Below are positions 3,784-54,580 of a stretch of 64,000 nucleotides of DNA, in pieces. Position 1 is the stretch's first letter. Every line of letters begins with the position of its first letter. The position numbers and the translations under genes are program-made. Under the pieces are notes generated by a model. That model saw only the letters and a program-made list of their open reading frames with translations. It did not search any database and was not told the DNA's origin. The DNA is from a virus, in IMG/VR virus record IMGVR_UViG_3300025732_000024, positions 1 through 64,000 of that record. The stretch is one strand, 5' to 3'.

Positions 3784-4203
3784 ATGAATAGTTGGCGCAG
3801 TCATGAAATTCAAATTTTGATTAATAGTGCTGGTAAATATACCATAAGAGAGATTAGCGATCGCCTAGGCAAAAGCGTTCAATCTACTACATATCACGCC
3901 AAAAGATTGGGACTAGATTTTAACAAGTGGAGTCAGGAAGATTTGGATTTTTTGAAGCAAAATTCATTTAGATTCACGATTAAGCAGCTTGCAGAAAAGT
4001 TAAATAAAGGACAATATTGTGTTAGGAGGAAAATCAAAGAATTAAGACTGGAGATATTGCCTCACAAAAGAAGATGGACTGAGCAAGAACTAAAATTTCT
4101 AATTACCGATTTCTCTTTAAGTCAAAAAAGCTCAATACTAGGAAGATCCAAACAAGCAATAATGAAAAAACAATGGCAAGCAAACAATGAAAAAACAAAA
4201 TGA
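3784..4203 (+). CDS. HTH/Myb-like repeat DNA-binding protein
   Basis: Three W(S/T/R)xx(E/D)...IxxxLG(K/R)S repeats; AAGGAG Shine-Dalgarno. Confidence 0.65.
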   Translation: MNSWRSHEIQILINSAGKYTIREISDRLGKSVQSTTYHAKRLGLDFNKWSQEDLDFLKQNSFRFTIKQLAEKLNKGQYCVRRKIKELRLEILPHKRRWTEQELKFLITDFSLSQKSSILGRSKQAIMKKQWQANNEKTK

Positions 4204-4647: not shown

Positions 4648-5436
4648 TCATTCCCCAAACCATAATTGACGGGAATCATCAATAATCTTCTTGTCTAATT
4701 CCTCTAAATAATCTCGCCGCAATTCCTGATTTTCTTTGATACTTGGCACATTCTCCCAAGCATAATCAGGAATATTCAACGAATCAAGGTGTCTATTTAA
4801 TTTAATATAATCGGGTTTTCCGCTTTTAGACACAAAGCCATAGCGTCTACATAAAGCAGTTTTGTTAATGGTCGAACCATCATTAATTAAATCCTGCCCA
4901 TGAATAATGCGATCGCGGTACTCCACTTTTTCCACAACAGAATAACCGAGTATCTTTTGCTGCACAGGTTCAGGGCAAGTAGCAACAATTAAATGACGTG
5001 CATCAAGTACGGCTTTCTCCGCTAAAGCTTTTTGAGTTTCCGCCTGTGCTAATTGCAAACGTAGCTCTAGTTCGCGGATGTGGTCATTTTGTGCAGGAAT
5101 GACGGTTTTAATTATTTGTTTGGCTTCTGAAAATGACTTAACCAGTGTTCGCTTGCATTTTCTGACCTGCTCAGTATTTTTTGATAGGGTCATTACGTAA
5201 GTAGCTTGATCTTCGTTCAAGTAGGCAAACAGTGTAATATTTGTTGCCTTGGATGAGCTTACTACAGATGCGTTTTCAAATCGCAGGTGTCCAAATTCCT
5301 GTAACTCGGTCTGATACTTTCTGATAGTCCTGAAAAATGATCTATGCTCAATCCCCAGTTCTTTGGCTATCAGTCGGGAATCAACAACTAGCTCATCATC
5401 TTTCTGAATTACATCAATTTTTGCTAAACTGTTCAT
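4648..5436 (-). CDS. Rha-family phage regulatory protein / antirepressor
   Basis: LVVDSRLIAKELGIEH...FG.L.F...YLNEDQATYVMTLSKNT...K..LVK.F (Rha signature). Confidence 0.85.
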   Translation of the reverse strand: MNSLAKIDVIQKDDELVVDSRLIAKELGIEHRSFFRTIRKYQTELQEFGHLRFENASVVSSSKATNITLFAYLNEDQATYVMTLSKNTEQVRKCKRTLVKSFSEAKQIIKTVIPAQNDHIRELELRLQLAQAETQKALAEKAVLDARHLIVATCPEPVQQKILGYSVVEKVEYRDRIIHGQDLINDGSTINKTALCRRYGFVSKSGKPDYIKLNRHLDSLNIPDYAWENVPSIKENQELRRDYLEELDKKIIDDSRQLWFGE

Positions 5437-5972: not shown

Positions 5973-6039
5973 AAACAAAGCGACCGCCGCACCGTGGAAA
6001 GTCAAGCGATCGCCTTCAACCTAATAGGTCTAATTAACT

Positions 6040-9366: not shown

Positions 9367-9720
9367 ATGGCGAATCGTAACTACACTTATTTATTAATAT
9401 TAGATATTCTATTTAGTCGCGGTAGATGCACAGCAGAAGACATAGCCAAAGATGAGGATTTCTTAAATAAAAAACCAGCTACAATTCGATTATATTTAAG
9501 AGAATTAGCCAGCTTAAAACTAATAGATATCCATGCCTGGGAAGAAGAGGATATCTCTGAATCAGGTAGAAGACCTCACAATACCTATTCTTTAAAATGT
9601 AATTGCCCATTGCCTGGCGAGATGGATGAATGTGCGAAATGTCCATCAGGGAAGATAATCAAAAGATTAATCGCCAGTCAGGCAACATCCCAGGCGTGTG
9701 TGATGCCGCCAAAAGAATGA
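9367..9720 (+). CDS. Winged-helix regulator with Cys-rich tail
   Basis: TAEDIA...TIRLYLREL...GRRPHNTYSL; CxCP and CxxCP motifs. Confidence 0.6.
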   Translation: MANRNYTYLLILDILFSRGRCTAEDIAKDEDFLNKKPATIRLYLRELASLKLIDIHAWEEEDISESGRRPHNTYSLKCNCPLPGEMDECAKCPSGKIIKRLIASQATSQACVMPPKE

Positions 9721-9721
9721 T

Positions 9722-9958
9722 ATGATTCTGGCGTACAGATTGGGATATCTTATGGAAAAACATCACGACACACAAGTAGAAATCAGGTGTAGACAGGATT
9801 TAAAGGAAAGTCTGTCTAAAAAGCTCATAGCTTGTGGCTATGTCTACCCCAAGGGATCAGAAGCACTGCCAAGCTTTGCTAAATTCCTGGAAGCGTTAGA
9901 CGGTAAGGACTTGAAGTGGTTTAGAAAAAATTTCAGAAAAGGGGTTGACAATCCCTAA
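9722..9958 (+). CDS. RHH-like small regulator (paralog of 13671..13892)
   Basis: Shares RC..(D/E)LK.SLS.KLIACGY.Y.K..E.L..FA.FLE.LD.KDL.WF with the paralog. Start may be ATG 9752. Confidence 0.65.
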   Translation: MILAYRLGYLMEKHHDTQVEIRCRQDLKESLSKKLIACGYVYPKGSEALPSFAKFLEALDGKDLKWFRKNFRKGVDNP

Positions 9959-41002: not shown

Positions 41003-41066
41003 TGCCTTGTTTCCTTTGTGTTTTCTGTATATGAATAATATAGTCTATCCATTAACAATATGTCAA
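41003..41066 (-). promoter_or_regulatory. Repeated promoter/leader module, copy 1
   Basis: TTGACA-tattgttaatggatagac-TATATT...AAAGGAAACAAGGCA-ATG. Confidence 0.8.
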
Positions 41067-51641: not shown

Positions 51642-52056
51642 ATAGATGATGAATAAAGTTTGCATTGCAAGAATCTTGTAATGTGCGCGCACTGGCATTA
51701 GTCAGTGCGTTTTGCTTTTTACCCGACCACCGCAACATCACGATTATAACACCATATCCAATATTATGCAAGCGGCTGAAACCCTTGCTGTATCTACATC
51801 TCTACTTTTACTTACAGTATCCTCCTCATCCAGTGGAGACTGCTCATTTGGATTTTTTCTTTTGGAAAATTCTTTTCTTGGATTCCATTCCCATAAGCTC
51901 TGCATCATGAGAAGGATACTGTAAGTAAAACGCCAAATCCTTGTAGGGTAGGCGGTTCACCGTCAAGCTAGTTAAAGCTGTTGCGATGATTGTACTGATA
52001 CAGGCGTCAAGATTGTGACTTTTGTAAAATTCAGTATAAATCTAAGATAAAAGGTG

Positions 52057-52085
52057 TTGACAATTAATCTGAGATAAATTATATT
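52057..52085 (+). promoter_or_regulatory. Sigma70 promoter with direct-repeat operator
   Basis: TTGACA-17 nt-TATATT; AATCT(A/G)AGATAAA repeated on either side of the -35 box. Confidence 0.7.
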
Positions 52086-52170
52086 GATTACATGAGAGGC
52101 AAAACACTAATCCCAAAACAACCCGCAGGCCTCACGGGGTGCAGATGGTAGGGACTCTGCATTAAGGAAG

Positions 52171-52347
52171 ATGTTTGAACAAATTGAGTCCATGAAATCC
52201 GATGCTGCCAAATGGCAGCCTGAGTTAACTGAAACGTCATTATCTGACTATATGCTTACCCTAGCATCTGCTGGGGATTTAGAAGCTATAGAATGGGTAA
52301 TAGAACACATTATGGAGTCTTCAGAAGAAGACTCTGAAGAGTTTTAG
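52171..52347 (+). CDS. 58-aa highly acidic protein (not in the ORF track)
   Basis: AAGGAAG Shine-Dalgarno; MFEQIESMKSDAAKWQPELTETSLSDYMLTLASAGDLEAIEWVIEHIMESSEEDSEEF. Confidence 0.6.
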   Translation: MFEQIESMKSDAAKWQPELTETSLSDYMLTLASAGDLEAIEWVIEHIMESSEEDSEEF

Positions 52348-52466
52348 TTGTTACTAACTCCCAATTTGACGGCCATTTCAATCCCGAAATATTAAGTTAT
52401 GGGGTAAGAATCAAATTCTTAATGGCCGCATTCCCCGAAACCGTTATTCAATAGGGGACTAATCAA

Positions 52467-52775
52467 ATGCAAATCAAAATCACAGAAAAAAGCAGCTTTG
52501 CGCTGCTAGAAATTCTTGCGGACAATGGCAACCCTGCCAGCCCCCAAAATCCAGTAGACGAACAATCAGAACTGGCGAAAGCCAACTTCCCTGAAGCCAA
52601 CGGACAGTTGGCTGTCATTAGCGGAATGCCAGTCAGTGCAATCGCCTTGGTGGCGTTGCACTACAAAAACCTGTTCGGCGCAACTGCTGTCGCCAATCCC
52701 CGTCTTGGGGTGGCACTGGTGGTTCACTCCACCAACCCAGCCTACCCACTGGGTGCGTCAATCCCTTTGGGATAA
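52467..52775 (+). CDS. Csx3/Crn3-like cyclic-oligoadenylate-binding protein
   Basis: VISG.P...LH......AVANPRLG.A.VVHS matches the recalled Csx3 consensus VISGRGP...H..H...AVYDPRLG.AVVV.SH; similar length. Confidence 0.7.
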   Translation: MQIKITEKSSFALLEILADNGNPASPQNPVDEQSELAKANFPEANGQLAVISGMPVSAIALVALHYKNLFGATAVANPRLGVALVVHSTNPAYPLGASIPLG

Positions 52776-52780
52776 TCGAG

Positions 52781-52903
52781 TTGTGGCAGAATCGCACCGT
52801 TAAAAAGCGCGGTAGACCTGCCACAGGTCAAGGTGAATCAAGGTATATTCCTCTTGAATTGTTACCCGCCGTAGATAATCTCCTAGAGGAATACAGAAAG
52901 TAA
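52781..52903 (+). CDS. 40-aa RHH-like regulator (Aca-like; not in the ORF track)
   Basis: TTG start; KKRGRPATGQGESRYIPLELLPAVDNLL; ends at a terminator. Confidence 0.5.
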   Translation: MWQNRTVKKRGRPATGQGESRYIPLELLPAVDNLLEEYRK

Positions 52904-52992
52904 AAGAAATCCCTAGTCAATGGCTGGGGATTTTTATTTTGAAAATATTTTATTTCGCTATTGACATTATAGAGAAATTATTCTATAGTGTA
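52903..52992 (+). promoter_or_regulatory. Terminator plus promoter module, copy 1
   Basis: TCCCTAGTC-aat-GGCTGGGGA-TTTTT, then TTGACA-17 nt-TATAGT. Confidence 0.8.
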
Positions 52993-54488: not shown

Positions 54489-54580
54489 AAGAAACCCCTG
54501 GTCAACGACTGGGGATTTTTTATTTTAAAAATATTTTATTTTACTAGTTGACATTGTAGAGAAATTATTCTATAGTGTTA
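54489..54580 (+). promoter_or_regulatory. Terminator plus promoter module, copy 2 (promoter of ribozyme operon 2)
   Basis: Near-identical to 52903-52992; TTGACA at 54548, TATAGT at 54571. Confidence 0.8.

Follow-up and report, generated by a model that had tools for sequence, protein, structure and literature searches.

A phage-encoded protein of Csx3/Crn3 fold with replaced catalytic residues, in an operon with exchangeable cargo genes

Ring nucleases of the Crn3/Csx3 family are otherwise known only from cellular type III CRISPR loci, and a gene for a protein of this kind in the genome of a phage raises the question of what the protein might do for a virus and whether it could still do what its cellular relatives do. 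The gene considered here lies in a stretch of 64,000 nucleotides (the window) that makes up positions 1-64,000 of IMG/VR virus record IMGVR_UViG_3300025732_000024, a complete virus record of 95,304 bp with direct terminal repeats. A sequence-only reading of the window had described the gene as the middle member of an operon resembling the acr-aca operons of phages, and had proposed that its product is a phage factor against type III CRISPR immunity, perhaps a catalytically dead sponge for cyclic oligoadenylate (cOA) rather than a nuclease. Our analysis indicates that the 102 amino acid (aa) product has the Csx3/Crn3 fold, that the residues on which the chemistry of Crn3 depends have been replaced in it, and that it is a promising candidate for an anti-type-III-CRISPR factor of an unfamiliar type, one that appears to be joined to a short, putatively DNA-binding module, probably by a programmed frameshift.

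The identity of the protein rests on its predicted structure and on its family profile. The AF2 model (pLDDT, the predicted local distance difference test, 95.8) retrieves only AfCsx3/Crn3 entries at Foldseek ranks 1-13 (probability 1.0, TM ~0.7), and its VIA comparison with 6yud, the complex of AfCsx3 with cyclic tetra-adenylate (cA4), gives Z 13.1 and a root-mean-square deviation of 1.7 Å over 90 aligned residues. Next in structural similarity comes the part of Cat1 that binds cA4 (chain residues 147-258; Z 8.8). Identity as a STAS domain or anti-sigma-antagonist was considered and rejected, with Z values of at most 4.4 against 13 for Csx3. At the level of sequence, a profile of 24 diverse family members finds five AfCsx3 sequences among the PDB sequences (E 2.2e-8, residues 24-99 aligned); only this wider profile did so, and PDB sequence searches with a single sequence or with a profile of the close family missed AfCsx3. 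The family consists of ~100-aa proteins that form 39 clusters at 90% identity and 21 representatives at 50% (among 1.8 billion sequences). The profile search that the sequence-only reading had named as its own check came out in two ways: 32 of 35 relatives touch the Pfam family Cas_csx3 (PF09620) at E<=0.1, with a best value of 1e-6, but the window protein by itself reaches 19.3 bits against a cut-off of 21 (profile positions 10-77 of 78), and 15 bits against a cut-off of 55.4 for the NCBIfam equivalog TIGR02579. These two shortfalls count against the assignment. ESM Atlas matches of ~0.8, which serve as leads only, fall nearest to clusters that were automatically named Csx3 and have cyanobacterial and Uroviricota members, and the nearest cellular kin are proteins of Planktothrix and Desertifilum named Csx3 by NCBI. 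We conclude that the 102-aa protein, as modelled, has the Csx3/Crn3 fold.

What the fold might still be able to do can be judged from the residues that the structural and biochemical work on AfCsx3 has singled out. In that protein the absolutely conserved H57 and H60 probably bind Mn, D69 serves in catalysis (the D69A mutant is inactive), the scissile phosphate is clamped by R71 and the second dimer pinned by H80, the residues that contact cA4 are S44, G45, R46, I49 and I22, and on cA4 the dimers form head-to-tail stacks (Athukoralage et al. 2020, PMC7371418). With the H60A variant of AfCsx3, turbidity or filament formation has been seen once cA4 is added. We mapped these positions through a HMMER alignment with the 24-member family profile. 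Of the eight side chains that we mapped, all with a part in ligand binding or catalysis, the window protein differs in five: H57 is replaced by L64, H60 by K67 (a Lys that is nearly invariant in the family), D69 by N77 in the motif ANPRLG, H80 by T89 and R46 by M54. The three that are kept are S44 and G45, as S52 and G53 (both invariant in the close family), and R71, as R79 (R or K in the family). The sequence-only reading had noticed the altered aspartate motif and the absence of the second His, and both observations hold; the loss goes further and takes in all three of the mapped histidines.

The pattern of replacement across the family is informative as well. The column of D69 holds N, D, T, A, V or S in the wider family, and D occurs there in distant cellular-type members only; DPR or DPK is kept by such distant members alone, those of Planktothrix and Desertifilum included, and these too have Lys at the position of H60. 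Y66-K67 and S88 are invariant in the close family, where H87 is found in most members, and K67 and S88 are nearly invariant in the wider one. The best-kept motifs of the family, SG(x)P and (N/D)PR(L)G, are the cA4 contacts of 6yud. Judged from these residues, Mn-dependent cleavage of the Crn3 type by the 102-aa protein is very unlikely and binding of a cyclic oligoadenylate is plausible. A point against the second of these statements is that R46, which contacts cA4 through its side chain, is Met here, so that the ligand may not be cA4. Compared with the known Crn3/Csx3 proteins (AfCsx3, AF_1864; 6yud, 3wzg; PF09620, TIGR02579), the window protein thus shares the fold and the size, the SG-P loop and the xPRLG motif with the equivalent of Arg71, and it is likely to be a dimer with two ligand faces as in AfCsx3; it differs in being encoded by a phage, in the replacements just listed, in falling below both curated cut-offs and in its linkage to a DNA-binding tail.

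The phage origin that had been proposed from the sequence is borne out by the complete, terminally repeated 95-kb genome. The operon has as neighbours a phage helicase (phrog_16) and a phage-only family (phrog_34986), and the Csx3-like gene stands between the helicase gene and small open reading frames (ORFs), rather than within or next to a type III CRISPR-Cas locus (a search for cas genes over the entire genome was not made). All loci that we retrieved for the relatives of the gene lie on contigs of viral or freshwater-metagenome origin. Pattern scans that took one genome from each of 185,579 species, with the close family and the cellular-type subset, yielded no relative, tblastn searches of plasmids with the window protein and with a second protein, P0044, gave no match, tblastn searches of GenBank phages gave chance matches to Klebsiella tail proteins only, and further viral scans with P0028 and P0023 added no new loci. 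A survey of 28,114 phage genomes with hidden Markov models of ring nucleases found AcrIII-1, Csx20 and Csx16 and no Crn3 (Hoikkala et al. 2025, PMC12409355); in the literature that we searched, no paper mentions both Csx3 and cyanophage, and we found no Csx3-family protein reported from a phage (PMC12409355). The sole GenBank phage with detectable DNA similarity to the window is Aphanizomenon phage CL131, and the stretch recurs in freshwater and lake metagenomes of many studies; for these two reasons the host is probably a freshwater filamentous cyanobacterium.

The sequence-only reading had given the layout of the operon as a promoter with a direct-repeat operator, a 58-aa ORF, the Csx3-like ORF, a 40-aa ORF and a terminator. 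All of these elements are where it placed them, and the locus can now be described as follows.

52036..52051, + strand: operator 1, ATAAATCTAAGATAAA, with the palindromic core ATCT-A-AGAT, just 5' of the -35 box
52057..52085, + strand: sigma-70-type promoter, TTGACA / 17 nt / TATATT, with 11 of 12 consensus matches
52063..52078, + strand: operator 2, ATTAATCTGAGATAAA, between the -35 and -10 boxes and 27 nt from operator 1
52092..52170, + strand: conserved 5' leader with a Shine-Dalgarno (SD) sequence; left cargo-swap boundary, from comparison with the related locus L001
52171..52347, + strand: cargo ORF of 58 aa, of no known family (ORF list, family searches)
52362..52466, + strand: structured intergenic region; right cargo-swap boundary, from locus comparison; no Rfam family match
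52467..52775, + strand: ORF of the Csx3/Crn3-fold protein, 102 aa (fold and family profile)
52763..52769, + strand: candidate -1 frameshift heptamer C_CCT_TTG (register X_XXY_YYZ), one codon ahead of the stop; conserved in 12 of 12 loci
52769..52903, + strand: -1 frame tail of 44 aa, basic (isoelectric point, pI, 9.4), with a KKRGRPATG arm followed by a strand and helix A like those of a ribbon-helix-helix (RHH) protein (locus comparison, profile alignment)
52781..52826, + strand: stable stem-loop 11 nt past the heptamer, a possible frameshift stimulator (folding)
52902..52938, + strand: hairpin with T-run, like an intrinsic terminator (repeat-pair analysis)

The -35 box (52057-52062) and the -10 box (52080-52085) are interleaved with a direct repeat (52036-52060 and 52063-52087, at 27-nt spacing) whose core, AATCTRAGATAAA, occurs in two copies in the entire 95-kb genome, both of them at this promoter; the core of each operator is the 9-bp palindrome ATCT-N-AGAT. 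Eight loci have enough upstream sequence to be surveyed for these operators. The operator-bearing promoter lies 5' of the Csx3-like gene in six of them (the window, L001, L002, L003, L006 and L007), and in L003 the promoter-operator module, with a perfect TTTATCTAAGATAAA, is directly upstream of the gene. The operator pair has diverged in L011, and in L004 a search of 2.5 kb ahead of the gene did not find it.

The genes that stand between this promoter and the Csx3-like gene are different in different phages. The 58-aa ORF of the window, which is very acidic (16 D+E against 2 K+R, pI 4.05), has a homologue in L004, and its place is taken by unrelated ORFs in L001 (92 aa), L002 (124 aa), L006 (184 and 68 aa) and L007 (237, 84, 72 and 71 aa), although the 5' leader of L001, behind which a different ORF begins, is near-identical to that of the window. 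Across the loci the Csx3-like gene and its tail are constant and the upstream cargo varies: the cargo genes are swapped between phages, and the operator pair travels with the Csx3-like gene. The conserved leader on the left and the structured element on the right mark the borders of this hotspot. None of the cargo ORFs of the window, L001, L002, L006 and L007 matched a Pfam family, the ESM Atlas returned nothing useful for the 58-aa ORF, and we identified neither cas genes nor genes for known anti-CRISPRs in the operon. The small genes of the hotspot, that of the 58-aa acidic protein among them, are promising places to look for novel anti-defence functions of cyanophages. In L006 the first cargo ORF (343-897, ~184 aa) begins with the same N-terminus as the 58-aa ORF of the window (MFEQ..MKSDAAKWQP) and is fully divergent thereafter, which suggests that recombination has made a joint within the ORF. 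In L002 an operator-bearing promoter module, TTGACAATTTATCT[AT]AGATAAAATATATT, is present twice, at 3953-3981 and 5399-5427 (-2048 and -602 relative to the start of its Csx3-like gene at 6001), and the same repressor may control two cargo units there.

How far does this operon resemble an acr-aca operon? A strong promoter with inverted-repeat operators, variable small upstream genes, a distal DNA-binding module and a terminator are common to both, and the overlap of the operators with the -35/-10 region, conserved across loci, is of the kind by which acr-aca operons are recognized. The comparison made by the sequence-only reading holds in these respects (operator promoter, swappable upstream cargo, conserved DNA-binding module) but not in its placing of the Csx3-like gene, which is the conserved anchor of the operon and not variable cargo. 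With its tail the gene occupies the position of Aca; the anchor would then be a signal-binding fold and half of an RHH, maybe in one polypeptide made by frameshifting, in place of an Aca protein with a helix-turn-helix domain, and no cargo gene here is a known Acr.

The 40-aa ORF of the sequence-only reading (52781-52903, with a TTG start) falls within the 44-aa tail and lies in the -1 frame of the Csx3-like ORF. The profile of the tail aligns by hhalign with residues 4-41 of a 65-aa RHH protein of a phage contig, L021 (96.9% probability, E 1.9e-10), and the aligned region comprises the N-arm, the strand and helix A of that protein, a sister of which, in L020, matches Pfam RHH_1 at the 20.5-bit cut-off. 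L020 (3007-3192) and L021 (2992-3189) are high-GC, unrelated phages whose full RHH proteins of 61-65 aa have the same KKRGRPATG N-terminal arm; because of this shared arm we regard the arm and strand as a widespread phage DNA-binding module. The tail profile found no Pfam match at E<=10, and among PDB sequences it found a chance match to the C-terminus of the Fyn SH3 domain only. The label RHH-like given by the earlier reading suits the arm, the strand and helix A, but the tail amounts to only half of an RHH in the window and has no canonical start in half of the loci. That it ends after helix A, lacking helix B, counts against the picture of the operon drawn below, as does its poor monomer model (pLDDT 66.6, with a confident helix at residues 31-45 only). 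Three longer tail relatives (L010, P0083 and P0084) have an extra C-terminal extension where helix B would lie. A half RHH would need a dimerisation partner, which the Csx3 dimer could supply; a prediction for the complex of two Csx3-like chains with two tails scored 0.00 and speaks neither for nor against binding.

How, then, is the tail made? The Csx3-like ORF ends in AT[C CCT TTG] GGA TAA, in which the heptamer is in exact X_XXY_YYZ register. The heptamer is C_CCT_TTG or C_CCT_TTA in all 12 loci, at protein identities from 94% down to 57%, and in each of them the -1 frame reads on as PFG(V/I)I(D/E)LWQNR..KKRGRPATGQGE.RYIP..LLP.V...L. Among the 40 invariant residue columns of eight divergent loci the terminal Pro codon is the sole invariant degenerate codon (CCT in 8 of 8), and the terminal Leu codon is TTG or TTA only. 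The three codons from the stop to 'LW' vary in the manner of -1 frame coding (ATC/ATT, GAG/GAA/GAC/GAT). An 88-nt segment with the hairpin downstream of the heptamer folds at -29.7 kcal/mol (z -3.6), and the downstream stem is kept in nine of ten loci, being absent in L003. The product of a -1 shift would have 145 aa and a computed mass of ~15.6 kDa. Metatranscriptome contigs from four runs of three studies cover the 58-aa ORF and the Csx3-like gene (one of them begins at 52111); two bridge the heptamer into the tail, one of these being a start-less CTG variant, and none has an indel at the heptamer. The contigs of these RNA libraries might derive from contaminating DNA, and their cover does not reach the promoter, the intergenic region or the end of the tail. 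Transcriptional slippage was rejected as a source of the tail, there being no homopolymer run and, as weaker evidence, no indels at the heptamer in the RNA-library contigs. One such contig (run X22) matches the Csx3-like gene up to ~52761 and continues into 227 nt of unrelated sequence; a relative whose gene ends just before the heptamer, without a tail, may exist.

The most serious competitor to frameshifting, which we consider a real if lesser possibility, is that ribosomes terminate and reinitiate, so that the tail is a separate Aca-like repressor of 40-44 aa and the Csx3-like protein exists in its 102-aa form only. The starts would be ATG in relatives and AUC/AUU, the TTG or CTG two codons on, or AUA (in L003) in loci of the window type. 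Many tail relatives in the databases do start with MDLWQ, MSLW or MKLW, and their ATG stands in the very place of the ATC or ATT of loci of the window type; in these relatives the tail is a separate, stop-start-coupled gene (TAATG), an overlap that is the classical arrangement for translational coupling; free-standing versions of the tail with their own N-termini exist (P0083, P0084); and a TTG is present in six of the 12 loci. Viral contigs scanned with a DNA pattern for the TAATG-coupled variant gave two matches, both unrelated. Against coupling, three different non-standard starts are needed to cover the 12 loci. In six of these there is no ATG, GTG or TTG ahead of the conserved GRP motif, and the putative TTG start flips freely to CTG among phages that are ~90% identical. 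The sole candidate start of L003 is an AUA that overlaps the stop, yet the arm is under clear coding constraint there, its differences from the window arm being mostly synonymous (AGA/CGC, ACA/ACC, GGT/GGA, TAT/TAC). Coupling would also leave unexplained why the CCT codon and the C before it are invariant when all other degenerate codons vary.

No mechanism other than a -1 frameshift accounts by itself for all 12 loci; frameshifting is the most economical reading of the tail and the one toward which we lean, if by no great measure. The coupled and free-standing tail relatives just described weigh against it, as do two properties of the region: U-rich heptamers that end in G are not the most efficient shift sites in bacteria, and the main 6-bp stem of the downstream hairpin, both arms of which encode conserved residues, shows no compensatory covariation. 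On either view, the 40-aa ORF probably extends the Csx3-like protein by frameshifting, or is closely coupled to it at the least, and it is probably not a free-standing aca gene. Programmed -1 frameshifts in tail chaperones (G/GT), dnaX and the IS3 family have in common with this candidate an in-register X_XXY_YYZ heptamer, a downstream hairpin and, provided that the shift takes place here, two products that share an N-terminal domain at a fixed ratio; the site proposed here differs in lying one codon before the stop, in adding a short DNA-binding arm and in its sequence, C_CCU_UUG/A, which is not A/K-rich.

From these elements we might draw the following picture of an autoregulated accessory operon, of anti-defence type, in a freshwater and probably cyanobacterial phage. 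The strong promoter with its two ATCT-N-AGAT operators would drive the swappable cargo and then the conserved Csx3-like gene, whose product has kept the backbone and arginine contacts to cOA and lost the Mn-binding histidines and the catalytic aspartate. Such a protein would most likely bind cA4 or a related signal without cleavage of the Crn3 type, and might act as a sponge or a sensor against type III CRISPR signalling. A fraction of the ribosomes would shift by -1 at C_CCU_UUG, one codon before the stop, and add the basic 44-aa tail; a dimer of the Csx3 fold would pair two such tails, which could bind the palindromic operators and repress the operon. We propose the picture as a whole tentatively, and somewhat more readily doubt than affirm that all of its parts will hold together. 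An argument made in the field also weighs against it, namely that sponging may fail against type III systems because these produce so much cOA (PMC13148439). If the picture is true, the protein would be without precedent, either as an anti-CRISPR derived from Csx3 or as a viral sponge or sensor of cA4 that is directed at type III systems, and would offer a direct test of the current view that sponging cannot beat type III signalling; with an operator-binding arm attached to the domain, possibly by recoding, an anti-defence protein and its autorepressor would be combined in a fixed ratio and in very little space.

The protein might instead be a fast viral enzyme and not a sponge, with K67, H87/S88 and R79 catalysing an in-line, metal-independent cleavage of cA4 as in Crn1 and AcrIII-1. 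This is an unlikely reading in our estimation, yet one that accounts for several things: K67 and S88 are invariant or nearly so and H87 occurs in most close members, R79, S52 and G53 are kept, and the relatives in Planktothrix and Desertifilum combine Lys at the H60 position with an intact DPR or DPK. The known viral factors against type III systems are, moreover, enzymes (AcrIII-1 and the SAVED protein AcrIII-2; PMC12409355, PMC12751052), and sponging has been argued to be a weak strategy (PMC13148439). On the other side, D69A alone kills AfCsx3 (PMC7371418), the D69 column is N, V, T, S or A in the phage clade, so that selection for one chemistry is not apparent, and a metal-independent Csx3 would be without precedent. 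AcrIII-1 (DUF1874), AcrIII-2 (viral SAVED), Csx15, Acb2 and Tad are likewise small proteins with a cyclic-nucleotide-binding fold. The fold family of the window protein differs from those of AcrIII-1, AcrIII-2 and Acb2. Csx15, which has not been seen in phages, is a filament-forming cA4 sponge or slow nuclease that stacks head-to-tail on cA4 like Csx3, and some of its members sequester cA4 and do not cut it (PMC13148439).

Less probable again is that the protein senses the signal and does not inhibit it, the long form being a cOA-gated repressor like Csa3 that releases the operators, and so turns on the cargo, when cA4 rises in the host. A ligand-binding fold without catalytic residues that is joined or coupled to a DNA-binding module, with operators that are co-conserved, would suit such a role; the second-best structural match is to the region of Cat1 that serves a non-nuclease, filament-forming cA4 receptor, and head-to-tail stacking on cA4, as in AfCsx3, could change DNA binding. 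Csa3, which joins a cA4-sensing domain to one for DNA binding, and the cA4 receptor Cat1, whose sensor region is Csx3-like, show the same combination of a non-catalytic cA4 receptor domain and an output module; in the window the output would be a 44-aa RHH-like arm, possibly present on a fraction of the molecules by recoding, and the context is viral. The effect of a ligand on DNA binding is pure conjecture at this point, and the short form, made in excess, would compete for the ligand. The two roles might be combined, in that one gene would yield two proteins by -1 frameshifting, a free cA4 binder and a repressor with an RHH arm that leaves the operators when host cA4 stacks the dimers and thereby switches on the anti-defence cassette; we mention this as the most speculative of the possibilities considered.

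That the locus has nothing to do with CRISPR signalling, the Csx3 fold being a dimerisation scaffold for the regulator of an accessory-gene hotspot or a binder of some other small molecule or of RNA (AfCsx3 also binds RNA, 3wzi), would suit the unmet curated thresholds, the five changed side chains and the operon's lack of identified cas or known anti-CRISPR genes, and we think it improbable in view of best-kept motifs that are exactly those contacting cA4 in 6yud, nearest cellular kin that are cyanobacterial proteins named Csx3 by NCBI, and an operon anatomy that is that of anti-defence loci.

Some further features of the locus deserve mention. The spacer between the 58-aa ORF and the Csx3-like gene is 120 nt long and structured. 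The last of its hairpins, at 52432-52458, reads TCCCC-N17-GGGGA; the SD-like GGGGA of the Csx3-like gene is masked in its stem, and its loop, GTTATTCA, does not vary. The part of the spacer ahead of this hairpin exists in two unrelated structured versions (window 52362-52466; L001 5890-6000; L006 1170-1279). The first, in the window, L004 and L011, is a nested GGCC...GGCC hairpin; the second, in L001 and L006-L009, is a T-arm-like hairpin, TCTCAGG-TTCGATG-CCTGAGA. Both are followed by the same SD-sequestering hairpin and neither matches an Rfam family; the spacer might be processed, control translation or mimic a repeat. The window contains no Rfam match at the gathering score, and at an E-value threshold it gives sub-threshold matches only, among them terminator look-alikes (BSnc120), hammerhead and histone stem-loop. 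Two sub-threshold hammerhead matches occur downstream in the sister phage L001, one of type II at 9458-9522 (30.6 bits against a cut-off of 37) and one of type I at 9762-9819 (26.9 bits against 34).

Finally, near-identical promoter cassettes recur elsewhere in the window. One, TTGACATT[AG]TAGAGAAATTATTCTATAGT, is found twice on the + strand, at 52961-52989 and 54548-54576, and another, TTGACATAT[TG]..., in four copies on the minus strand, at 41066, 41591, 42226 and 42782. Such recurrence suggests that this phage has many small, independent transcription units that share their regulation.

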